Positions 1 to 11,354 of a stretch of 50,608 nucleotides of DNA are shown piece by piece. The notes under the pieces were generated by a model that was not told the DNA's origin, ran no database searches, and was given only the letters and a program-made list of their open reading frames with translations. Source of the stretch: a virus (taxonomy: Duplodnaviria; Heunggongvirae; Uroviricota; Caudoviricetes); IMG/VR virus record IMGVR_UViG_2667527522_000001. One strand, 5' to 3'. The position numbers and the translations under genes were made by a program. How positions within the stretch are numbered: position 1 is the first letter of the stretch; each line of letters starts with the position of its first letter.

Positions 1-861
1 ATGGTTGACAATGTTTTTAAGAAGAAATTGGCATCAATTAAGAACGAACATGTGTCGGTGTTAGATAGTTACAAAGTAAGATCATTTAAAGAGACTCATA
101 GCGACACGGCCTGTATTGTGCGTATTATTGAAATATATTCACTGAATAAGCTGCGAGCTAAAGGTGAAAAGCTGTATTCACTTACGGGGTTAACAGTACC
201 TGATACGGAAACTGTGGCGAATGAGATCAACCTGCTCCTGAGCCGTTATGCCCAGTTGTGTCGTCAGGAAGAGGAAGAGTTATCTTTCCGGCAGCGTGAA
301 GTGACAAATGCGGAAGTTGCATGGAAAAGCACATTCTCAAAAAACGGCGTCAGTAGCATTGCTGAAGCCAAAACGAATAAAATGGGGCATGCTGAACGAG
401 CGGATGCTGAACGGTATTACCATCTGGCTGTTTCCCGGTTGAATGAACAACATAGTCGATTGAGCACGATCAAGCTTTTGCCGGGAGTACTGGCCGATGA
501 AGGAAACTACATTGGGAAGGGAATCGATAAGCGTTTACTGAATATATTTCCTCAATCCGGCCAGATCCCTGCTGATTTTATTTCTGTATTTAATGACAGT
601 GACGTTGTCCGTGATATTAAATTTATTACTGATGCACTCAAGTCTTTATCTGATTCCGTGAGTGAAATTATTAGTCGTTGTAGCGTTCCAACTGATCGTT
701 ATGTATTAAATAACGGTGGAATGGCAAGAGCTATGGCTTACAGGGAGTACTATCGAGCAGATAATTATGTATTACGTTCAGTCGTAAGTGACCGGGATTA
801 TGTTGAGCATGTAATGAAATACAATCTGGTTACTGAGTACAAAAATAAAATCTTTTCTTAA
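1..861 (+). CDS. Hypothetical protein in scaffold position upstream of the capsid gene; may be 5'-truncated by the window edge
   Basis: 286-codon frame open from base 1; ends 22 bp before the GpN-like gene; no family recognisable by eye. Confidence 0.4.
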   Translation: MVDNVFKKKLASIKNEHVSVLDSYKVRSFKETHSDTACIVRIIEIYSLNKLRAKGEKLYSLTGLTVPDTETVANEINLLLSRYAQLCRQEEEELSFRQREVTNAEVAWKSTFSKNGVSSIAEAKTNKMGHAERADAERYYHLAVSRLNEQHSRLSTIKLLPGVLADEGNYIGKGIDKRLLNIFPQSGQIPADFISVFNDSDVVRDIKFITDALKSLSDSVSEIISRCSVPTDRYVLNNGGMARAMAYREYYRADNYVLRSVVSDRDYVEHVMKYNLVTEYKNKIFS

Positions 862-883
862 ATACTTAAAAAGGTGAAAAACT

Positions 884-1888
884 ATGTATGCCTTCAAAAC
901 TGAAAGGCCGGACGCAGCACGTCGTTATCATAATAAATTCGTCACTGGCACTAACTATCAGGAAGAATCAAACAGACGCTTTGCATTAAGCGAACCTACT
1001 GAAAATATACTGCGTACCTCAATTCTGGAATCCGGGTGGCTTATTAAAAATATTACCCTACGTGATGTTAACGCCGTGTCAGGTAATGCCGTCAATATTG
1101 GTGCCAGTGAACTGTATACCGGACGTGTGGATGGTGGCCGTTTCCACAAAAAAATGGCAATCAATGGTACGGAGTTCTTTCTGACAGAGACGGATACCTG
1201 CGCCCGGATCAGCTATTCCGATATGTCTCATATTTACCATACCGGCGTGCCGGATGAGTTTGAGAAAACGGTTGAGAGCTTTTTTGCCCAGGCATATGCG
1301 CTGGACATGCTGCGGGTCGGTTTCAACGGTGTGTCGATTGCAAATACTACAAACCCGGAAATCAATAAAAAAGGCGAGGATGTCAATATTGGCTGGCATG
1401 CACTGGCGAAAGCCTACGGGAACGGAAAGCAAATCATCTCTGAGCCTGTCACTCTGGGAGAGACTGGCACCTGGAAAAATATTGATGCTCTGGCCAACCA
1501 TCTGATTACAGAGCTTATTGCTGAGCAGTTTCGTGAAGATCCTCGTCTGGTTGTACTGGTTGGGGCAGAGCTGGCAGCACATCAACGCCTGAAGTTATTT
1601 AATGCCGCAGACCGCCCGTCTGATGTGAATGCGGCACAGATGGCTACAAGTTCTGTTGCTGGCCGCTTTGCGTTTATTCCCCCGTTTATGCCGGGTAAGC
1701 GTCTGGCAGTAACGACGCTGGATAATCTGCATATTTACACTCAGGCGATAACACGCTGGTTTCGTGCTGAGTTTGATGATGAAAGCAGTGAATACGTGCA
1801 TTCCTACCTGCGCAATGAAGGTTATGCACTCGGTGAACCTGAACTGTACGCGGCTGTTGATGAGTGCACCCTGACGTTTGCGGATTGA
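884..1888 (+). CDS. P2-family (GpN-like) major capsid protein
   Basis: 334 aa; motifs GFNGV, NIGW, EDPRLVVLVG, LDNLHIY line up with P2 gpN as I recall it; SD-like aaaggtg upstream. Confidence 0.6.
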   Translation: MYAFKTERPDAARRYHNKFVTGTNYQEESNRRFALSEPTENILRTSILESGWLIKNITLRDVNAVSGNAVNIGASELYTGRVDGGRFHKKMAINGTEFFLTETDTCARISYSDMSHIYHTGVPDEFEKTVESFFAQAYALDMLRVGFNGVSIANTTNPEINKKGEDVNIGWHALAKAYGNGKQIISEPVTLGETGTWKNIDALANHLITELIAEQFREDPRLVVLVGAELAAHQRLKLFNAADRPSDVNAAQMATSSVAGRFAFIPPFMPGKRLAVTTLDNLHIYTQAITRWFRAEFDDESSEYVHSYLRNEGYALGEPELYAAVDECTLTFAD

Positions 1889-1901
1889 CTTAGCGACAGA
1901 A

Positions 1902-1930
1902 AGACCCGCTCAGAGGCGGGTCTCGTTTAC
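1902..1930 (+). terminator. Rho-independent terminator-like hairpin after the capsid gene
   Basis: GACCCGC-loop-GCGGGTC stem directly after the stop codon; weak T tract. Confidence 0.4.
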
Positions 1931-2085
1931 AGCATCAGGAAAAATGAAGAACTATTTTTAAGCAGAGGCTTAAGCATGCCAGCGTTAATTAATCCAGGCA
2001 ATGATCAGTTTTCGGTTATAAATTTCTTGCCTCACCAGGAATGCGCGGGATATAGTTTAAAGGTTGCCGCAAAATCGGCAGCCGG

Positions 2086-2141
2086 GCGTAGGAACCCGTG
2101 TTATCTGAAGGCGATACTACACGCGCTAGGCGTGTTTTTTT
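2086..2141 (+). promoter_or_regulatory. seqA-like target box followed by hairpin and T7 run (candidate immunity terminator)
   Basis: GTAGGAAC...TCTGAAGG box at 2088-2111; CACGC-loop-GCGTG stem plus TTTTTTT at 2120-2141. Confidence 0.45.
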
Positions 2142-2261
2142 GTGTCGCAGCTTTGACTCACCTAAAATTTATGGTGTGGTGGCTGATTGTATTTTTTTAT
2201 TTTTTACGCCACATCATCAGAATTATGGTAGTCCAGGCGGGGCAGCTTTCGGGCTGGCCGG

Positions 2262-2289
2262 TATCCTTCAGAGCCGGTATTCCTACCCC
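2262..2289 (+). ncRNA. seqB-like element, candidate CI-RNA-type antisense core
   Basis: TATCCTTCAGAGCCGGTATTCCTAC is the same-strand reverse complement of both halves of the flanking boxes. Confidence 0.4.
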
Positions 2290-2310
2290 CGTCTGGGCTA
2301 CCACCCATGA

Positions 2311-2352
2311 GCGTAGGAACTCCGGTGGTAGCGTTACCCGCTATCTGAAGGA
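2311..2352 (+). promoter_or_regulatory. seqC-like target box overlapping the Shine-Dalgarno of the first alpha-operon ORF
   Basis: GTAGGAAC...TCTGAAGGAGG; AGGAGG sits 10 nt before the ATG at 2363. Confidence 0.45.
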
Positions 2353-2362
2353 GGTTGCCATT

Positions 2363-2566
2363 ATGGCTACAGTCCCTGCTTTATCTCACCCTGAATTTAC
2401 CTTTGTCTTTCTGGCTGTCCGCCGTACAGACCGTGATGCCCGTCCACGCCCTGTGCGTGTAATCGCAGAATGCGAGCATGCTGCACGCCTTAAACTTGCC
2501 ACTGAATTTATCCTGAGCTTTGCTGCCCGTATCCCTGTGAAAAGAGCCGGGGAGGTGGTTGCATGA
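2363..2566 (+). CDS. Small hypothetical protein, first ORF after the immunity region
   Basis: 67-codon ORF with strong SD; the longer 1976-2566 frame upstream is probably not coding. Confidence 0.4.
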   Translation: MATVPALSHPEFTFVFLAVRRTDRDARPRPVRVIAECEHAARLKLATEFILSFAARIPVKRAGEVVA

Positions 2567-2799
2567 AATCCATGAATTTTAAGCAAGGCTGCATATTGAG
2601 TGAACAGGGGGAGAGTCGTCTGTTACGGGCGGCACTGGCCAGTGAGTTTCTTGCAGAGGTCTTGTCCGTGCCCACAGTGAATGGAGCGAGAACTGTTTCA
2701 GCGGAAGGCGCTGCGGCTTTAGTGGCCTGTATTGCCGAACAACTGGATGGCGTTGTTAAGGAAACCAGCACAATTAAGGGAGTGATGCGCGATGAATAA
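2563..2799 (+). CDS. Small hypothetical protein
   Basis: 78 aa; ATGA overlap with upstream ORF, translationally coupled. Confidence 0.45.
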   Translation: MKSMNFKQGCILSEQGESRLLRAALASEFLAEVLSVPTVNGARTVSAEGAAALVACIAEQLDGVVKETSTIKGVMRDE

Positions 2800-3202
2800 T
2801 AATCAAAATTTAAAGGCGCATGCTTTACGAACAGCAGTCTTACGCTACTACATTGCTGATGCATTCATTTCCTTAATGGTGCGTGTTCATAATGAACCTG
2901 TTTATATTGAAGATGGCGAACGAATAGAACTCTCCCACGAAAAAGTGGTGAGTAATATTATTTACCATATTGAAATGCCGTGGGTGAATGAGTTTGGGGC
3001 TGATGCTGGTTGCATACTGGCCGCAGAGAAACTGGAAAAAATGCTTAAACCAGGCTTTATGTCAGAAAATATTCGCCTGTCAGTTTTTGGTGTCACAGAG
3101 ATGCGTGAGGTTTACCGGGATATTATTTTCGGAGCACCTGATGGCGAACTACCCGAAGGTTTTGAATTTGTGAAGCCGGAAGGTCAGGAGGTGCTGCTGT
3201 GA
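2792..3202 (+). CDS. Hypothetical protein
   Basis: 136 aa; stop overlaps the primase GTG start. Confidence 0.5.
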   Translation: MNNNQNLKAHALRTAVLRYYIADAFISLMVRVHNEPVYIEDGERIELSHEKVVSNIIYHIEMPWVNEFGADAGCILAAEKLEKMLKPGFMSENIRLSVFGVTEMREVYRDIIFGAPDGELPEGFEFVKPEGQEVLL

Positions 3203-5886
3203 AAACACCGTCTGTATCCACGATTTCCGGAGCTGCAATTGGGCGCTGGCCTTATATCCTGTCAGCATTAGGTATTAAAGTACCGTCCGCAGGACATCAT
3301 GGGGCTTGCCCTGCCTGTGGTGGAAAAGATCGTTTTCGACTGGACGATAAAGCGGGGCGAGGGACGTGGTTTTGTAATCAGTGCGGTCATGGCGATGGTC
3401 TTGATCTGGTTCGTCTGGTGACAGGAAGAAAGATAAAAGAAGTCGCCGGGATGGTATCTGAGGCGCTTGCATTACCAGAAATACAGGAGAAGCCCGCATT
3501 GCCAGCCAGGAAAAAGGCCGCAGGAAAAGAAGCGGGCGCGGAGCGATATACCAGACTCAGACAGCAGTCCTGCAATGGTGAGCCGGTCTATCTGACAAAT
3601 AAGAGCTTACACGGGTATTCACTTCCCTTGCTGTCACAGCCTTTGAATCTGGCCGGAATAACATTTTCCACCGGTTCATTACTGCTGCCTTTGACGGATA
3701 TTTCCGGGAATATTACTGGTGGCCAGCTTATCAATCCTGACGGGGATAAAAGTCTGCTGCCCGGTAGCCAGCTGTCTGGCGCATTCATTGCCCTGACCGA
3801 TATACCCGCTGAAACACCTGAACAGGTGATTATCACTGAGGGTTTTGCCACGGCGCTTACCGTCAGTCTGCTGACTGAAGGATGGATCGTGGCGGCTGTC
3901 GCTGCCACCAATTTACTGAAGGTGACGGAGCAGATCCGAAAACGCTGGCCGGAAACCCGGATCATTCTGGCCGGAGATAATGATCTGGCTGACGGCAAAG
4001 AAAACACCGGGCGTATTCAGGCAGAGAAAGCCGCCAAAGCGGTGGATGGCTGGGTAACGCTCCCTCCGGTACGCCATAAGGCTGACTGGGATGATTATCG
4101 GCAGGAAGTGGGGAAAGAACGGGCGAGAGATGCCTTTCGTGAAGAAATGACGCTGCATGGCAAAGGGCAGACCCGTTTACCAGAAGGGTTCCGGCTGACA
4201 AAAGAATATTTGTGGTACGACAAGCTGGTTAATAAGTCTGATGGTGATACAGAGATACGTAATATCAAAATTTGCAGTCCGTTGCGGGTGACGGCAATCA
4301 CCAGTGATGCTGATGGAAGTAATTACGGGCGTTTGCTGGAATGGGAAGATACCAACGGAAACAGCCGTAAATGGGCAATGCCGATGGAGATGCTGGGCGG
4401 TAGCGGGGAAGAACTGCGCCGCGTTCTGCTGGTTAACGGGCTTTCTTACATCAACATTAACGGCATGGCCAGAGCATTCCTGATGGAATATATCTCGCTG
4501 TGTAAACCGGACAGAAAAGTAACCTGTGTGAATAAAACTGGCTGGCACGGCGGGGTTTACGTTCTCCAGGATGAAGTGATAGGGCGCGAAGCCCAGTCAG
4601 TCATCTTACAAACATCGAGTGTGCAGGGGCGTGATTTTCGTGTCAGCGGCACATCAGAGGGCTGGCGTGAAAATATAGGCCGTTATTGCATAAAGAATGC
4701 CCGTCTTGCCTTTGCGGTGAGTCTGGCATTTGCTGCCCCCCTTCTGAAACTGGTTGGTATCGGCGGTGGAGGTTATCACCTCAAAGGGGAATCCACAGAC
4801 GGTAAAACCACGACGATGAAAGTGGCTGCATCAGTATGTGGTGGAACAGATTTCTGGCATACGTGGCGGGCGACGGGGAATGCCTTAGAAGGAACGGCGA
4901 GCCGCCGCAATGATGCCACGCTGATGCTGGATGAAATCCGGGAGGTTGACGGCAGGGAGGCGGGAAATATCGCTTATATGCTGGCTAACGGGCAGGGCAA
5001 AGCCAGAGCCAGAACAGATGGTTCGGTAAGGGAAACCAACCGCTGGAATCTGTTGTTTCTGTCTACCGGGGAACTGTCACTGGTAGAGCATGCGGCAAGC
5101 GCCGGGGAACGTACGTATGCCGGGGTTGAGGTCAGAATGATCCAGATCCCAAGCGATTCGGGCAAGTATGGCGTGTTTGAAGAACTTCATGGCTTCAGTA
5201 GCGGGAAAACCCTGGCTGAGCATCTTGAGCAGCACGTAGCGCATTATCATGGTGCACCATTCCGCGACTGGCTGTATTGCCTGACCGCTGATCTGCCGGA
5301 ACTGACCAGTCAGGCGAAAGCCTTATTGAAAGAGTATACCCGAAGGCTGACGCCGGAAAATGCCGGGAATCAGGTTGGCCGGGCTGTTACCCGTTTTGCT
5401 CTGGTTGCGATGGCCGGGGAGCTGGCCACAAAAGCGGGCATCACAGGATGGCCGGAGGGAGAGGCCTTTCGTGCCGCTCAAAGCTGTCTGGCTGCATGGA
5501 TGGCTGACCGGGGCCATACAGCTAATCAGGAAGATAAAGCGGCACTTGAACAGGTTCGGGACTTCATGACGCGTAATCAGTTCAGTCGGTTTGCTGACTG
5601 GAATGACGACAGGAACCGGCCTGTTTCAATGATGGGATTCAGAAAAGTCGATAAAGGAGACAACGTGACAGAGCCGGTTGTGACGTTCTACGTTCTCCCG
5701 TCAGGCTGGAAGGAGATCTGTAAGGGATTTGACTCGCGTAAGGTGGCCAGGTTGTGTGTGGACGCGGGCTGGCTGAAACCCGGTGAAGATGGCCGGACGC
5801 AAAACAGCATTCGCCTGCCAGAAATAGGGCTTAAACGTGTGTACCAGTTCAATACACAGGTACTGGGAAGCGCTGAACCTGAGTGA
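3199..5886 (+). CDS. P4 alpha-type primase/helicase
   Basis: 895 aa; N-terminal CPACGG...CNQCGHGDG zinc-binding motif; long central and C-terminal region; GTG start with AGGAGG SD. Confidence 0.88.
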   Translation: MKTPSVSTISGAAIGRWPYILSALGIKVPSAGHHGACPACGGKDRFRLDDKAGRGTWFCNQCGHGDGLDLVRLVTGRKIKEVAGMVSEALALPEIQEKPALPARKKAAGKEAGAERYTRLRQQSCNGEPVYLTNKSLHGYSLPLLSQPLNLAGITFSTGSLLLPLTDISGNITGGQLINPDGDKSLLPGSQLSGAFIALTDIPAETPEQVIITEGFATALTVSLLTEGWIVAAVAATNLLKVTEQIRKRWPETRIILAGDNDLADGKENTGRIQAEKAAKAVDGWVTLPPVRHKADWDDYRQEVGKERARDAFREEMTLHGKGQTRLPEGFRLTKEYLWYDKLVNKSDGDTEIRNIKICSPLRVTAITSDADGSNYGRLLEWEDTNGNSRKWAMPMEMLGGSGEELRRVLLVNGLSYININGMARAFLMEYISLCKPDRKVTCVNKTGWHGGVYVLQDEVIGREAQSVILQTSSVQGRDFRVSGTSEGWRENIGRYCIKNARLAFAVSLAFAAPLLKLVGIGGGGYHLKGESTDGKTTTMKVAASVCGGTDFWHTWRATGNALEGTASRRNDATLMLDEIREVDGREAGNIAYMLANGQGKARARTDGSVRETNRWNLLFLSTGELSLVEHAASAGERTYAGVEVRMIQIPSDSGKYGVFEELHGFSSGKTLAEHLEQHVAHYHGAPFRDWLYCLTADLPELTSQAKALLKEYTRRLTPENAGNQVGRAVTRFALVAMAGELATKAGITGWPEGEAFRAAQSCLAAWMADRGHTANQEDKAALEQVRDFMTRNQFSRFADWNDDRNRPVSMMGFRKVDKGDNVTEPVVTFYVLPSGWKEICKGFDSRKVARLCVDAGWLKPGEDGRTQNSIRLPEIGLKRVYQFNTQVLGSAEPE

Positions 5887-5912
5887 TTATCGCGTGAGTC
5901 TTATTTTTATGA

Positions 5913-6103
5913 GGTAACACTGGTAACAGAGGTAACACCCGTTACTGATGCGGTTCTTCAGTGTTACCAGTCAAAAATACTGACTGGTAACAGAGGTAAC
6001 AAAAAATGGTGTGTTACCACGCGTTACCTCTTGATTTTGCTAACTGGTAACAGATTAAATCCTTTTAAATCAATAGCGTTACACGTGTTACCAGTGTTAC
6101 ACG
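5913..6103. repeat. Iteron cluster, candidate replication origin or cis replication region
   Basis: At least 6 direct GGTAACA and 4 inverted TGTTACC copies in about 190 bp directly after the primase gene. Confidence 0.55.
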
Positions 6104-6168
6104 TTCAGAACAAGAGGTAGGGATCCAAATCCCTTCTTCTGGCGGGCAACAGTATAGGGCACAGAACG

Positions 6169-6441
6169 ATGAAGATGATGAGAATGTACTGCCCCACATG
6201 TCAGGCAGTAGCACGGATAGGTAAAACAAACAGGAAACACCCACAACTGTACGATGTGTACTGCTATTGCTCTAATGTGGAGTGCGGTCACTCGTTTGTG
6301 ATGAATGTTGCTTTCTCCCATTCCGTTAGTCCAAGCGCGCTGAACGGGCAGGGAAGGGTTAAAGAGCTGATTGATGCAATTCCACCCGAGGAACGGGAAA
6401 AGGCTTTAAAGTTGCTGCTGGCTGCGCAAAAGAATGGGTAA
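6169..6441 (+). CDS. Ogr/Delta-family zinc-finger late activator
   Basis: YCPTCQ...(22 aa)...CSNVEC cysteine spacing as in P2 Ogr. Confidence 0.65.
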   Translation: MKMMRMYCPTCQAVARIGKTNRKHPQLYDVYCYCSNVECGHSFVMNVAFSHSVSPSALNGQGRVKELIDAIPPEEREKALKLLLAAQKNG

Positions 6442-7120
6442 AGTATGCGTCGGGAATGGCCGATCTGTTCCCGGAACCTGAACACAGGATTTCAGTTTAT
6501 ACGGTCATAAAATTATTATTTTTCAACTGGTTATCTTCTTCATGTTTCACAAACCTTCATAAAATCACACACCTAAAATTAATTATCCATTTAATATCAT
6601 AGAGTTGCGTATTCAGGCCATAGATTCGACGGACAGTAAAACTGAAAAAAAATGAATTTCTTTTCATTCTTTTCAGTTCCTGTATCGCAGTACATCTCGA
6701 GGACTGGCACGGACTGGCGGTATCGTTTGTAAAAAATCCAGGCTGAAAATTTTTAGTGATATGAAAACCGCAGGCGGGTGCGGTGTAGTGCCGTTTTGGT
6801 CTGTCGAGCGTATATTTTCCTTTTTCACGATTGCTGCATATCAAAACGAATGTGCAGATATCAGGCCGTGTCAAACCGTGAATCGTGGAGCCTAAATGCC
6901 CAAACTACGTTTGTAGACCTAGCTAGGGGAAGGTTTCCACATATACTGCTACCTATCTTCCAGTCGCTGGTGAGGATCAAGGTAAGCTAACTGGTGAACA
7001 AGAAAAGTACTTTCGTATCTTGCGTACTCGTTTTTTTTGATTAGTATGTACAGGTAGTAACTGGATGGTGAGAATTCGTCATAACTTATCAAATTGCATG
7101 ATGTTTATAGAGTATGAGTA

Positions 7121-8002
7121 ATGAGTCATAATAAAAAGGAATATGCTAAATTTTTCCGTCGCCCCATTTTTTCATCCTTAGCAAAAGGTAAGGATATTTC
7201 GGATTTATTTGGGAGTTTTGATTCTTACTGCTATGAAACACTGTTTTCAAACAATGATAATAATGAACATGAGATTTCACTAAGGGATTTATTTACATCA
7301 TTATATGATTTTTTGCGTCTGAATTATAGAAATGAATATGTTTATAAGACAGCACTTGTCAATAAAATAATATTCGGTAAGCACAGCCCAAAAACAAGTT
7401 CGTCGTCCATAGAGTTACCAATTAAAAACTCTATAGTGGATGTTGCGGTGTTTAATGGTACGTCTACAGCTTACGAGATTAAGACAGAGTATGATTCACC
7501 AAAAAGGTTGATTACTCAAGCCCCTGATTATTTGGATGTTTTTGATAAAGTGTATATAGTTACACATCCAGAGTATGCAAGTAAATATTGTGCTTTAAAT
7601 CTCCCCAGAGTGGGAGTTATGGTTTTGAATAAAAAAGATCAATTGAGTGTCATTAAGGAGGCAGATTCAAATATTGATTATATTAAAAGTGACAGCTTGT
7701 TTTCAGTTCTTAGAAAGGAAGAGTTCTTAGCTATAATAGAAGATTACACTTCAACTAAAATAAATATGCCTAACGGATTGGTTTATGAATATTGTAAAGA
7801 GATATTCATGCAGATGCCATTAAACATAGCAAATAAATACTTTATCTCTGCTATGAAAAAAAGATGTAACGATAAAGTTTTTTTGGATTATATTTATTCT
7901 CTTCCAGCATGTTTACGTGTTTTAGGTTATGCAACACCATTATCAAGAAAGCAAAAAGAATTCATCATGAATTTGATGGATGTAAAAATTAAAATTTGTT
8001 GA
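7121..8002 (+). CDS. Hypothetical protein, gene A of an AT-rich accessory cassette; possible PD-(D/E)xK-like nuclease motif
   Basis: 293 aa; markedly AT-rich versus flanks; IVDVAVF...AYEIK resembles a D...ExK signature. Confidence 0.65.
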   Translation: MSHNKKEYAKFFRRPIFSSLAKGKDISDLFGSFDSYCYETLFSNNDNNEHEISLRDLFTSLYDFLRLNYRNEYVYKTALVNKIIFGKHSPKTSSSSIELPIKNSIVDVAVFNGTSTAYEIKTEYDSPKRLITQAPDYLDVFDKVYIVTHPEYASKYCALNLPRVGVMVLNKKDQLSVIKEADSNIDYIKSDSLFSVLRKEEFLAIIEDYTSTKINMPNGLVYEYCKEIFMQMPLNIANKYFISAMKKRCNDKVFLDYIYSLPACLRVLGYATPLSRKQKEFIMNLMDVKIKIC

Positions 8003-8466
8003 TATCCTCAGGAGTTGTAAGTTATGTATAGCCCATATTTGTATGCGAGAAGTACAGAGTTATTATGCCTTAGGGACCTCGTTGCGAAGGGAGTTAGCCT
8101 AAATGGTCTGCTACCAATTTTAGAACCAATTAACGTCAATACGAGAAATTTATTAACATGTTTAAATGTTTGGAATTCTGACATAATTGTTATCCTTAAT
8201 CCTTATCAGGAAGATTTTTCTTCACACAATAACGTCTTAACTTTAAATCAAAATTTATCAAGTGTATTAACAAATAAAAATAATATCATCTCTGGATATC
8301 TTATTCAGCCCAATACAACGATTAATGATATTAATAATTGGTTGAATGCTAACTTAAATAGACGAGTTGCACTTCTATATGATAATCCATCATTATCCAA
8401 CTCTGATATTCGGTAATGGTGCCAACTTACTGATTTAGTGTATGATGGTGTTTTTGAGGTGCTCCC

Positions 8467-8742
8467 GTGGCTTCCATCTCCATCAGTTGTCCCTCCTGCT
8501 CAGCTACTGAAGGCGTGGTGCGTAACGGTAAAAGTACTGCCGGACATCAGCGCTATCTCTGCTCTCACTGCCGTAAAACATGGCAACTGCAGTTCACTTA
8601 CACCGCTTCTCAACCCGGTACACACCAGAAAATCATTGATATGGCCATGAATGGTGTTGGATGCCGGGCAACCGCCCGCATTATGGGCGTTGGCCTCAAC
8701 ACGATTTTACGTCACTTAAAAAACTCAGGCCGCAGTCGGTAA
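8467..8742 (+). CDS. insA: IS1 InsA
   Basis: [42 protein letters not shown] matches IS1 InsA. Confidence 0.9.
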
Positions 8743-9164
8743 CCTCGCGCATACAGCCGGGCAGTGATGTGATTGTCTGCGCTGAAATGGACGAACAGTG
8801 GGGCTACGTCGGTGCTAAATCACGTCAGCGCTGGCTGTTTTACGCGTATGACAGGATACGGAGGACGGTTGTGGCGCACGTCTTCGGTGAACGCACTCTG
8901 GCCACACTGGAGCGTCTTCTGAGCCTGCTGTCGGCCTTTGAGGTCGTGGTATGGATGACGGATGGCTGGCCGCTGTATGAATCCCGCCTGAAGGGAAAGC
9001 TGCACGTAATCAGCAAGCGTTACACTCAGCGCATTGAGCGACATAACCTGAATCTGAGACAACATCTGGCAAGGCTGGGACGGAAGTCACTGTCGTTCTC
9101 AAAATCGGTGGAGCTGCATGACAAAGTCATCGGGCATTATCTGAACATAAAACACTATCAGTAA
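8661..9164 (+). CDS. insB: IS1 InsB frame (transposase InsAB' by -1 frameshift)
   Basis: IS1 InsB sequence; slippery AAAAAAC at about 8718. Confidence 0.85.
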
Positions 9165-9729
9165 GTTGGAGTCATTACCTGATATTCAGTTGTTGGCGAC
9201 AAATCAATTGATTAGTTATCATGTTGTTTTAAATAATAAAATGCTTCCTAATCAGTGCGCTCTTCTTCCTTTGTCGAAGTTAATTATTATTAGCGATAAC
9301 TTTAGAAAGTTAGCAAAAAATGCTGATTATAATGGGCCGGAACTTTTCACGCACGCACATCAATTCGTGGGACAAAATTACTTAGGATTTGGCGATTATA
9401 CAATTACTGGCCAGGTACTAGATCTTGGAGGTGGTCAACCTTCTGCTGTTGCCGCACATTTGGTGTTCAAGAATTTACAAGCGAATACAGTTTGGATTCG
9501 TCATTTTGTATCAAGCAACACGCAACGAGGAAGTTCAAATGTTACTGCAAAATTTTTAGATGTTTCAGATCAAATTACAAATCTTGTTCCCCAACATCCA
9601 ACCCAGTTTGGCAGCAACATTGGTCTTAACTATTATTATTACAATAGTCAACCAACTGTAAGGCATTTCCCTGGGTTGCCAAAAAACAAACAGTATCAAA
9701 TTACTCACCATATTTGTTTCATGCTGGAT

Positions 9730-10953
9730 TTAATAGCAGGTCGTATTTAATAAGCTAGCGTACCATTCCATCATTACTTGTCGATCTTTAATATATTGCG
9801 CATGATTGTAAGTACCTCGAATAGAGTTCTTATCAACATGCGCAAGCTGCATTTCAATCCAGGCACTTTCAAACCCATGCTCATGCAAGATGGTGCTCAT
9901 GGTATGCCTGAAACCGTGACCCGTTAACCGACCGTGATAACCCAGTAGTTTTATCACTTTGTTGATGCTGGCTTCGCTCATTGGTTTACTGACGTCATTC
10001 CGGCCAGGGAAAACGAGGCTGTAATTCCCTGTTATTTCTTGCAGCTTTTTCAGGATATTGATCGCCTGAGTTGATAACGGAACCAGATGGGGGCGGCGTT
10101 TCTTCATCCGTTCTTTGGGGATCTCCCATAAGGCATTATCTAAATCAAACTCAGCCCATTCCGCTGCACGTAGTTCAATTGTTCGCACGCCTGTTAGCAT
10201 CAACAGCTGCGTGGCGTATTTGGTAACTAAACTGCCCTGATAGTTATCCAGAGCATTAACGAACTCGGGCAACTCGCTTTCAGTCAGGAACGGGAAGTGT
10301 TGGGTTTTAGGTTTGTTGAGTGCGATAGCTAAATCGGGTGCAAAATTATACTTTGCTCTACCAGTGGCAACAGCATAACGAAGCACTTCACCACAGCGGC
10401 GGCGGATCTTACTGGTTTGCTCTAGCGCACCTCTTTTCTCTATTTTTTGCAGGACGGTTAGCAGTTCTAATGGTTCAATCTGCTCAATTGGGCGCTGGCC
10501 GATAAAAGGAAAAATATCCTTTTCCATACAATTGAGAACCTCTTTTGCATAACCCTCTGACCAGGTGGCTTTTTTCGATGAGTGCCATTCTCTGGCCACA
10601 GACTCAAAGCTGTTCTCATGCGCGAACTGCAAAGCAATCTTATCTGCTTTTCTGGCTTCACTTGGGTTTATCCCGTTGGCTAACATCGAACGCGCTTCAT
10701 CACGTTTGGTACGTGCCTGTGCCAACGACACATCGCCATATACGCCAAAGGAAATCATCTTAGGCTTACCTGCAAAGCGATAGCGAAAACGCCAGCCTTT
10801 ACTGCCCGCTGTGTCGATCAGGAGTGATAGCCCCATACCATCGTTAAGCGTATAGGGTTTGTCCTTCGGTTTTGCTCTTTTTATTTGGATGTCAGATAGC
10901 AGCATGTGTATAGAAAAAAGATCGAACTCAGTTATACACAATGTTATACGCAA
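9730..10953 (-). CDS. int: Tyrosine integrase, P4 type
   Basis: 407 aa; N-terminal KRAKPKDKPYTLNDGMGLSLLI arm-binding type; C-terminal GHGFRHT...LAHVD...RGTYNHAQY catalytic region. Confidence 0.9.
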   Translation of the reverse strand: MRITLCITEFDLFSIHMLLSDIQIKRAKPKDKPYTLNDGMGLSLLIDTAGSKGWRFRYRFAGKPKMISFGVYGDVSLAQARTKRDEARSMLANGINPSEARKADKIALQFAHENSFESVAREWHSSKKATWSEGYAKEVLNCMEKDIFPFIGQRPIEQIEPLELLTVLQKIEKRGALEQTSKIRRRCGEVLRYAVATGRAKYNFAPDLAIALNKPKTQHFPFLTESELPEFVNALDNYQGSLVTKYATQLLMLTGVRTIELRAAEWAEFDLDNALWEIPKERMKKRRPHLVPLSTQAINILKKLQEITGNYSLVFPGRNDVSKPMSEASINKVIKLLGYHGRLTGHGFRHTMSTILHEHGFESAWIEMQLAHVDKNSIRGTYNHAQYIKDRQVMMEWYASLLNTTCY

Positions 10954-11075
10954 AGATGTATAGATTCCATTAGAAATAATGGTACTTTGCTGGACGAGTA
11001 TAAGGAGATGATATCAGTTAAAACAGTGAGTTATGGAATTAATTGAACTTAGTGAGAAGTGTTCATGGTGTCCCC

Positions 11076-11090
11076 TGCAGACATCTACTT
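11076..11090 (-). other. 15-nt match to the 3' terminus of tRNA-Arg (argW-like); att core candidate
   Basis: Minus strand reads CTGCAGGGGACACCA, preceded by non-tRNA sequence. Confidence 0.5.
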
Positions 11091-11153
11091 GAAGCGGCAG
11101 GGGATTGATTAGAATGGTATTTTTTAGATGTGAGAAATATTTTACCCGCTATT

Positions 11154-11354
11154 TTACCCATTGGCGCGGCTTAAGAGCTTATTTTTGAATTCACAATGGT
11201 CACGATATAACCATCTTGCTCGCCCGTGGATAACTTTGGCTTTTGGCAGGTCGCCGGACTTAATCCGGTCATAGATGAAGGTTTTACCGAAGCCAGTATC
11301 GGCCATGATGAATTTCAAATCAACCAGTGAATCAGGCTGTAGTTCGTGTTGCAT
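11154..11354 (-). CDS. alpA: AlpA-family DNA-binding protein (excisionase or regulator)
   Basis: 66 aa; LKFIMADTGFGKTFIYDRIKSGDLPKAKVIHGRARW resembles AlpA/Vis. Confidence 0.8.
   Translation of the reverse strand: MQHELQPDSLVDLKFIMADTGFGKTFIYDRIKSGDLPKAKVIHGRARWLYRDHCEFKNKLLSRANG

Follow-up and report, generated by a model that had tools for sequence, protein, structure and literature searches.

A P2-family coat gene and an orphan partner gene in a P4-lineage satellite of the Enterobacterales

INTRODUCTION

The 50,608-nucleotide stretch of viral DNA recorded as IMGVR_UViG_2667527522_000001 (referred to here as the window) opens with two genes, ORF1 (open reading frame 1) and a gene for a capsid protein of the P2 family, which are followed directly by an immunity region and replication genes resembling those of the satellite phage P4. 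The question raised by this locus is to which genetic element the capsid gene belongs and what use it is put to. An earlier note, written from the nucleotide sequence of the window, offered two answers: a satellite that encodes its own capsid protein, or the remnant of a P2-like late-gene operon fused to a satellite. The analysis described here makes it very probable that the two genes belong to a satellite as a functional module and are not left over from a prophage. The more specific reading, to which a probability of roughly 0.55 is given, is that ORF1 and the capsid gene serve capsid morphogenesis in an integrated P4-lineage satellite of 11 kb and would build or resize small heads using the portal, terminase and tail of a helper phage.

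RESULTS

Identity of the capsid gene

Both ORFs were found as the earlier note describes them, with 22 bases between them, and the window starts exactly at the ATG of ORF1 (Table 1). The same two coding sequences are annotated by RefSeq in identical copies of the element. The product of the second, 334 amino acids (aa) in length, matched the Pfam family PF05125 (Phage_cap_P2) with an E value of 9.5e-67 over nearly the full length of the profile (16-326 of 327), and the major head protein family PHROG 70 with E 1.8e-86. A profile built from 43 sequences matched the solved coat proteins of phage phiRSA1 (7oz4, E 1.5e-34) and of P2, GpN (7jw1, E 1.6e-28). The AlphaFold (AF2) model of the protein had a predicted local distance difference test score (pLDDT) of 82.7 and a predicted template modelling score (pTM) of 0.82, and its comparison by Foldseek with GpN of the P4 procapsid (7jw1) gave a template modelling (TM) score of 0.72-0.80 with E 5e-23. 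The model indicates that the satellite protein keeps an intact HK97 fold. The description of the gene as one for a P2-type capsid protein is thus upheld as regards the family. It does not extend to closeness to P2 itself, as the identity to P2 GpN is 25% versus ~48% to the coat of P2-like phages of the ESSI-2 type. The nearest phage coats, at 47-50% identity, are those of ESSI-2, of the Escherichia phages ESSI2_ev015/040/129/239 and of Yersinia phage vB_YenM_324.

In P2, the first 31 residues of GpN are cleaved off by GpO (PMC7552001). In the alignment the Phe at the last residue of this 31-aa propeptide is conserved in the satellite coats, in the helper-type phages and in P2. The N-terminal arm (residues 1-30) is the most divergent part of the satellite protein relative to the helper coats, with a between-clade identity of 0.12-0.14. 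This would fit a different scaffold partner and is a weak lead. The hairpin that the earlier note called a terminator after the capsid gene is present (Table 1). Its interpretation as a terminator is no more than plausible, since the U-tract is weak and the hairpin was not called by a consensus terminator scan.

Limits of the element and its kinship with P4

In strain SK1144 the element lies between dsdC and a tRNA-Arg gene (argW) and is bounded by a 20-bp direct repeat, ATGGTGTCCCCTGCAGGAAT, with a spacing of 11,009 bp. The leftward extension that had been suggested as a check for portal and terminase genes added just one gene, alpA, which encodes an AlpA/Vis-type regulator, together with the left attachment site (attL); no portal, terminase or tail genes are present to the left of the window start in SK1144. 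The right attachment site is a hybrid one, common to the element and to an adjacent prophage. This prophage, of the CUS-3/P22 type, makes up window 11065-50608, stands in tandem with the element at argW and, in its head genes, shares ~94-96% identity with phiv205-1 and CUS-3. No tRNA gene was found in the window.

Homologues of several P4 genes were recognised in the element, namely int (40% identity), vis/alpA (46%), the cI region (58% at the amino acid and 71% at the nucleotide level), the primase domain of alpha (38%) and cII. The P4 genes sid, psu and epsilon are absent, both among the ORFs of the element and in a six-frame tblastn search of window 1-11200, where Sid gave nothing at E<=1 and Psu nothing significant; no element ORF has a Pfam match to Psu. 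The search for psu and sid proposed earlier therefore found neither gene. The epsilon/Ash gene is missing from the Escherichia coli element, yet PF10554 (Phage_ASH) is carried by Providencia relatives. No element ORF has a terminase-like Pfam or PHROG match that would indicate TerS or Rpp, and helper TerS gave no tblastn match in the satellite loci. The element is a P4 relative that lacks the capsid-piracy genes of P4 and bears ORF1 and the coat gene instead. When set against the seven-component definition of P4-like elements, int, delta and AlpA/Vis are present, sid, psu and epsilon are missing and alpha is matched in part only.

At least 80% of window 1-3200 is covered in 444 of 5,426 complete E. 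coli genomes, mostly at identities of at least 99%, a count that partly reflects the over-sampling of one clonal clinical lineage from which many of these genomes come. The record OX345456.1, a 7-kb 'plasmid', was considered as an episomal form of the element and rejected, being a linear contig of a fragmented assembly.

A conserved family of satellites

The coat protein has ~600 homologues, of which those ranging from 100% to ~50% identity are 330-340 aa long and come from many genera of the Enterobacterales. Elements of Providencia, Yersinia ruckeri and Salmonella share the gene order AlpA, ORF1 homologue, coat, primase-DUF927, Ogr/Delta, variable defence cargo and integrase. A scan of one genome per species yielded 80 loci, which were classified by tblastn along with reference loci fetched earlier; a locus was taken as a satellite if it had ORF1, coat, alpha and delta and was without portal, TerL and sheath. 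The classified loci comprised 26 satellites and 52 complete P2-like phages, the latter with GpO-coat-TerS, portal, TerL and sheath. Genes for portal, head-tail adaptors, TerS or TerL were found in none of the 26 satellite loci. As in E. coli, Salmonella, Providencia and Yersinia, the AlpA-ORF1-capsid order is kept in 20 further loci.

A neighbour-joining tree of the coat proteins, rooted on P2 GpN, placed the satellite coats in a single clade in all of 100 bootstraps. The phage coats were monophyletic in just 24 of the 100, and the satellite clade may therefore branch from within the phage diversity. The ratio of nonsynonymous to synonymous substitution (dN/dS) was 0.05-0.19 for the coat gene, 0.06-0.26 for ORF1 with one close pair at 0.61, and 0.03-0.11 for alpha save for one pair at 0.42 involving a truncated copy. 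These low ratios indicate that the coat gene and ORF1 are both maintained by selection, and in protein sequence the pace of change in ORF1 was 3-4 times as high.

The satellites of Salmonella, Intestinirhabdus and Buttiauxella (loci L010-L012, L022 and L024) form a subtype with a different integrase, located at the opposite end of the element. Their ORF1 is longer (311-340 aa) with another C-terminal tail, and their Delta is of the P4-like double length (162-165 aa). Directly after the coat gene the Salmonella-type satellites have an unrelated gene of 110 aa, which was considered as a truncated GpO and rejected on comparison.

ORF1

No match to the 286-aa ORF1 protein was found in Pfam, PADLOC or among the sequences in the PDB. 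The homologues that were collected fall into 105 clusters, every one annotated as 'hypothetical' and every one from the Enterobacterales. A profile search of 1.84 billion representative proteins returned just 53 relatives, nearly all of 276-308 aa, and none of 50,697 phage records encodes a homologue. Proteins at the same position in the Providencia, Yersinia and Salmonella satellites are homologous at 21-31% identity to E. coli ORF1, the Salmonella type being matched by hhalign with a probability of 100%. ORF1 is thus an orphan family limited to these satellites and always adjoining the coat gene.

The AF2 model of ORF1 (pLDDT 87.8, pTM 0.81) is entirely helical and contains a long hairpin formed by residues 73-113 and 126-157. 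Homology of ORF1 to GpO, to Sid or to the ESSI-2 scaffold was considered and rejected, as no match came from BLASTP, from hhalign using a profile of 40 sequences or from comparing profiles with 51 GpO-like proteins of phages; against Sid, the ORF1 profile gave a probability of 0.2%. The statement of the earlier note that the upstream ORF shows no recognisable similarity accordingly holds for known proteins and scaffolds, in sequence and in fold. In the E. coli type the C-terminus of ORF1 is invariant (...KKK[IL]FS) and resembles the basic-aromatic C-terminal tail that is conserved in the GpO-like scaffolds of the helpers, a weak lead that would fit a scaffold role. That ORF1 is a scaffold analogue serving the coat is a reasonable inference from its gene position and predicted form.

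A stand-alone protease in relatives of the element

In 13 satellites, from Yersinia, Pectobacterium, Brenneria, Rahnella, Xenorhabdus, Proteus and Providencia, a gene of 169-177 aa directly 3' of the coat gene corresponds to the N-terminal protease domain of GpO. The satellite domain is 39% identical to residues 11-141 of P2 GpO and ~48-53% identical to that of ESSI-2-type phages. Residues aligned with D19, H48 and S107 of P2 GpO, which we take to be the catalytic triad, are kept in all 13 genes. The last of these is the residue mutated in protease-deficient GpO (PMC7552001). With the domain limits of GpO as given in the same paper (PMC7552001), the scaffolding C-terminal domain is missing from every one of the 13.

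The cos site and the helper phage

The 19-mer of the P2/P4 cos site has no match in the window at up to three mismatches, and the P4 and P2 cos regions, tried by BLAST against the element, gave only noise. The cos site was located by aligning the spacers between delta and the cargo hotspot of four distant satellites; one block stood out as strongly conserved, and its core, GCAGGCGGGTGCGGTGTAG(T/C)GC, was invariant. In Cronobacter phage ESSI-2 (Peduoviridae, Seongnamvirus, 28.8 kb) this block has counterparts at both genome termini: a stretch of 148 bp at the right end is 75% identical, and one of 48 bp at the left end is 90% identical. In the ESSI-2 record the two termini share an overlap of 15 nucleotides (nt), GCGGGTGCGGTGTAG, as expected if the cohesive end is written at both termini. 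The window contains the 16-nt core once against a chance expectation of 0, and 22 of the 23 satellite loci reaching past delta have it without a mismatch. The position of the satellite cos, between delta and the cargo hotspot beside int, is that of the P4 cos. Several copies of AAACTGAAA or TTTCAGTT flank the core in the satellites (window 6640-6770) and at the right end of ESSI-2, and these may be binding sites for terminase or a host factor.

As part of the favoured explanation, and carrying the same estimate as the whole, the helper would be a P2-like phage of the ESSI-2 type (Peduoviridae: Seongnamvirus or Quadragintavirus, 29-31 kb) and not P2 itself. A satellite and an ESSI-2-type phage were found together in six of the scanned genomes. 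The ratio of genome sizes between satellite and helper, 11.0 kb to 28.8-30.9 kb, is 0.36-0.38, and the ratio of P4 to P2, where a T=4 capsid replaces T=7, is 0.35. The 7.8-kb record 'Salmonella phage S.Kent 1-2-1' was considered as a packaged satellite and rejected, its ORFs showing it to be a fragment of an ESSI-2-like phage. The IMG/VR loci that share the cos core mostly have too little flanking sequence to be classified.

Remaining parts of the element

The features of the element in the window are collected in Table 1. The presence of a P4-type immunity region downstream of the capsid gene, as the earlier note proposed, was confirmed by the match to the C4/CI RNA family and by the DNA identity of window 2048-2443 to P4 8285-8707, the cI region. 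A match to the C4/CI RNA segment (window ~2210-2332), ~115-125 bp long and 80-90% identical, is also present in ~1,480 plasmid records, for the most part of conjugative plasmids from E. coli and Salmonella; these explain the 892 plasmid places in the first E. coli search. The two small genes that follow, of 78 and 136 aa, have no similarity to P4 epsilon, orf151 or orf106.

The assignment of an alpha primase is correct for one half of the 895-aa replicase. The half with the Zn-ribbon and Toprim domains aligns with P4 alpha, over alpha residues 1-311 only (~320 aa); the C-terminal half is DUF927, does not align and stands in place of the helicase half of the P4 protein. The repeats between the replicase gene and delta comprise ACTGGTAACAGAGGTAACA twice and a 32-nt repeat with an inverted GTTACCAGT motif, and they are a candidate origin for the DUF927 replicase because they are located where P4 has crr, just downstream of alpha. 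The Ogr/Delta-type activator is a single-domain protein, 48% identical to the Ogr-like regulator of ESSI-2 and weakly similar to P4 Delta.

In the cargo hotspot, the product of the sce7726-family gene was matched by the PADLOC 'cll' model PDLC02989 (E 1.2e-18) and is 39% identical to P4 cII over 61 aa, which relates the cargo to a gene of the gop-beta-cII hotspot of P4. The sce7725-family gene is interrupted by IS1 (8412-9178), with a 9-bp target duplication, CTGATATTC, at 8403-8411 and 9179-9187; the hotspot system of the window copy is probably inactive owing to this split. The insertion makes the window element ~0.8 kb longer than the intact 11,009-bp form. Relatives carry Kiwa, DndB, GmrSD, HATPase genes and others at the same position.

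The alpA gene (75 aa, + strand) is located just left of the window start in intact copies, at L001:14756-14983, where L001 is the reference locus that Table 1 relates to the window. About 13 tandem copies of CCCAG at L001:14420-14485, ~520-580 bp left of the window start and between attL and the alpA promoter region, could make the region 5' of the capsid operon prone to slippage. The alpA start of the E. coli-type elements is preceded, at a distance of 73 nt (L001:14684-14701), by a TGT-N12-ACA dyad; Ogr/Delta binds dyads of this kind at the late promoters of P2 and P4. The dyad was dropped as evidence, being loosely conserved outside these elements.

Table 1. Features of the satellite element, in window coordinates
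Feature	Position	Strand	Basis
ORF1, 286-aa orphan protein, all-alpha-helical in the model; candidate scaffold or size-determination partner	1-861	+	ORF; always directly 5' of the satellite capsid gene
Satellite major capsid protein, P2/GpN family, HK97 fold (model), 334 aa	884-1888	+	PF05125 and GpN fold match
G+C-rich hairpin, terminator-like, 9 bp, weak U-tract	1902-1923	+	Fold energy -17.5 kcal/mol, z -2.05
Icd-like ORF overlapping the immunity RNAs; C-terminal part like the P4 'cI ORF'	1976-2566	+	RefSeq; 58% identity over 105 aa
P4-type immunity region: isrK-like RNA (2063-2140) and C4/CI antisense RNA (2221-2308)	2063-2308	+	Rfam RF01394, 68.9 bits; RF01695, 81.1 bits
Two small conserved genes (78 aa, 136 aa), function unknown, 5' of the replicase	2563-3202	+	PHROG 38507, PHROG 5991
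Alpha-like replicase, 895 aa: P4-type Zn-ribbon and Toprim primase fused to DUF927	3199-5886	+	Pfam PF08273, PF13362, PF06048
Iteron-like direct repeats between replicase and delta, families D2 and D4	5919-6054 (= L001:20919-21054)	+	Candidate replication origin
Ogr/Delta-type late-gene activator, zinc finger, 90 aa	6169-6441	+	PF04606, E 5e-14
cos site, ESSI-2 type, core GGCGGGTGCGGTGTAG at 6773-6788	6641-6818	+	Match to ESSI-2 genome ends
Variable cargo/defence hotspot: sce7726-family gene (7121-8002) and sce7725-family gene (8024-9750)	7121-9750	+	RefSeq names
Tyrosine integrase, P4-Int type	9730-10953 (RefSeq start: window 10905)	-	Pfam PF13356, PF22022, PF00589; 40% identical to P4 Int over 406 aa
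Right attachment site, hybrid att common to the adjacent CUS-3-like prophage, 2 mismatches to the repeat	11065-11084	+	20-bp repeat of SK1144

DISCUSSION

Of the two answers given at the start, that of a satellite encoding its own capsid protein is supported as to gene content, conservation and context, the latter being a bounded 11-kb P4 relative with a monophyletic coat and a helper-type cos site. In the mechanism that we propose, AlpA/Vis, ORF1 and the capsid gene would form one leftmost operon, with the hairpin ahead of the immunity region as its end. In the presence of a helper, the Ogr/Delta activator of the satellite and the Ogr protein of the helper would turn on the late genes. The satellite coat would then assemble into, or redirect assembly to, a small procapsid, probably T=4, on the helper portal, with the assistance of ORF1 as a dedicated scaffold or size-determining partner. 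A GpO-type protease may take part, either the satellite's own, in the many relatives that add the stand-alone domain, or that of the helper. The helper terminase would recognise the helper-type cos of the satellite and package the 11-kb genome, and head completion, tail and lysis would be given by the helper. We infer three points: the coat homologue enters capsids, these are small, and ORF1 acts as the scaffold of the coat. In function, the nearest precedent is Ccm of SaPIbov5, a coat homologue that resizes capsids (PMC6893505).

Several observations weigh against such a module. Neither sequence profiles nor fold comparison relate ORF1 to Sid, Psu, GpO or any scaffold, and the E. coli subtype, to which the window belongs, is without the protease gene. 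A packaged satellite of this kind is absent from the 50,697 phage records. ESSI-2-type head genes are present in only 29 (full coverage) to 48 (any match) of the 5,426 complete E. coli genomes versus 444 with the satellite, a difference of ~10-fold, so that most E. coli copies of the satellite are without a resident helper; none of the 25 listed satellite hosts is among the helper-positive E. coli genomes. The TGT-N12-ACA dyad is not strictly conserved, with related inexact versions in Providencia and Kosakonia relatives. Finally, deletion of the capsid homologue of EcCICFT073, one of the phage-inducible chromosomal islands (PICIs), did not relieve phage interference (PMC6092414), and PICI capsid genes have been reported not to be required for helper-assisted transfer (PMC10111431).

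One alternative is that the coat homologue and ORF1 act solely in interference, by co-assembling with the helper coat or scaffold and poisoning or misdirecting helper capsids, without the homologue being a building block of the satellite particle. The host population would be protected or the satellite favoured, and heads made by the helper would carry the satellite, for instance as multimers. Co-assembly is readily pictured for a diverged paralogue with 48% identity to the helper coat, and in SaPIbov5 phage reproduction is blocked by Ccm (PMC6092414, PMC6893505). A defence hotspot is likewise part of the element, and ORF1 evolves faster than the other core genes, as an arms race would predict. 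This account nevertheless leaves the satellite family with no other gene for size redirection, despite a genome ~37% of that of the helper and packaging from cos, and the prohead protease domain with intact catalytic residues in many members fits the maturation of a productive shell better than pure poisoning. We regard it as unlikely.

A similarly low probability is given to the gene pair being a conserved but non-essential accessory, selected for another role such as regulation or some other interaction with the helper, with transfer independent of the pair. The PICI capsid genes that were reported as unneeded for helper-assisted transfer are nonetheless present in 21 of 29 reference PICIs (PMC10111431), and it was deletion of c1499 or c1500 that failed to relieve interference in EcCICFT073 (PMC6092414). 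Those PICIs, however, have coats of the lambda-E type and use TerS/Rpp redirection, whereas the satellite family has neither TerS nor Rpp and relies on cos; moreover, the full-length HK97 fold, the conserved Phe at the cleavage site and the linked protease point to a structural use of the pair. The remaining answer, a head-operon remnant of a P2-like prophage abutting a P4-like element by chance, was suggested by a gene order (~285 aa, then ~335 aa) resembling gpO then gpN and is taken as already refuted, since the upstream side holds alpA, attL and chromosomal dsdC but neither portal nor terminase, since ORF1 shows no kinship with GpO, and since the pair is syntenic across genera in 26 satellite loci with monophyletic coats under purifying selection.

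The capsid-morphogenesis module may be compared with known systems, as satellite-encoded coat homologues are already known as a kind. With P4 and the P4-like satellites (Moura de Sousa & Rocha; PMC8628076, PMC10085698) the element shares a size of ~11 kb, integration at a tRNA gene by a P4-type integrase, Vis/AlpA, C4/CI-RNA immunity, an alpha-type primase, Ogr/Delta, a cos site beside a defence hotspot near int, a Peduoviridae helper and a genome ratio of about one third. It differs from P4 in being without sid, psu and epsilon and in bearing a GpN-family coat and ORF1, with the GpO protease domain in many relatives. Its replicase has a DUF927 C-terminal half, its Delta is a single 90-aa Ogr domain encoded after alpha, its alpha operon is co-directional with the capsid genes and its cos is of the ESSI-2 rather than the P2/P4 type.

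SaPIbov5 is likewise a cos-packaged satellite that has no scaffolds of the Sid or CpmAB type and encodes a diverged homologue of the HK97-fold coat of its helper. It belongs to another bacterial phylum and its coat lineage is unrelated. Ccm turns prolate heads isometric, whereas the coat of the element described here is a candidate for resizing and is always linked to an orphan helical protein and often to a protease. The PICIs of Gram-negative bacteria (EcCICFT073, PmCI172) are also small integrated islands with AlpA, a primase-replicase and a coat homologue. In these, int and alpA are adjacent and co-directional and are followed by pri-rep; in the element the two genes lie at opposite ends and on opposite strands, alpA to the left (+) and int to the right (-). 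The PICIs have lambda-E-type coats, sometimes with a decoration protein, TerS/Rpp redirection and lambdoid or Mu-like helpers, in contrast to the P4 immunity, Ogr/Delta and Peduoviridae cos of the element, which has no TerS or Rpp. With the capsid-forming PICIs (cfPICIs) the element shares the idea of a satellite that makes its own shell and borrows the rest from the helper. The cfPICIs encode portal, head-tail adaptors, TerS and TerL, whereas in the satellite family there is no more than the coat, ORF1 and, in some members, the protease, so that the portal and terminase of a helper would still be needed.

The closest phage relatives of the coat, the protease domain and Ogr/Delta are found in the ESSI-2-type Peduoviridae, which have the same cos core and flanks. 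These phages differ in having a full-length GpO (protease and scaffold) 5' of the coat gene, in their terminase, portal and tail genes and in having no ORF1 homologue. Overall, the element resembles P4 in its layout, immunity, cos and hotspot, and where P4 has Sid/Psu it has a coat gene like Ccm or like that of the PICIs. In the searchable literature, the coverage of which is incomplete, we found no account of P4-type satellites that have a P2-family coat gene, nor of a P4-lineage family that combines a Peduoviridae-derived coat with an orphan partner, a split-off protease and ESSI-2-type helpers.

A wider proposal can be put forward tentatively, with rather less confidence than the module itself. 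A branch of the P4 lineage spread across the Enterobacterales could have given up the external Sid/Psu cage in favour of its own coat, ORF1 as a helical scaffold and a separate prohead protease, the last either ancestrally or in many members. The product would be a satellite-specific small shell, for which only portal, terminase, head-completion and tail functions are taken from ESSI-2-type phages. Such 'half capsid-forming' satellites would represent an independent route to capsid autonomy, intermediate between P4 and the cfPICIs.

P4, with its external scaffold, is the classic example of capsid piracy. Its relatives described here appear to fit their one-third-size genome into a head derived from the helper by means of a captured, diverged helper coat and a new helical partner, which mirrors Ccm of SaPIbov5 in an unrelated system. 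If this is true, the capture of coat genes for capsid resizing arose repeatedly, the orphan ORF1 family gains a function and a genetically tractable E. coli model becomes available with a known helper type, a known cos site and three candidate genes. The element is common and carries a variable defence hotspot, so its mobility affects the spread of defence systems. It would also stand for an added class of satellites, perhaps under-detected by the seven-component definition of P4-like elements because sid, psu and epsilon are missing.

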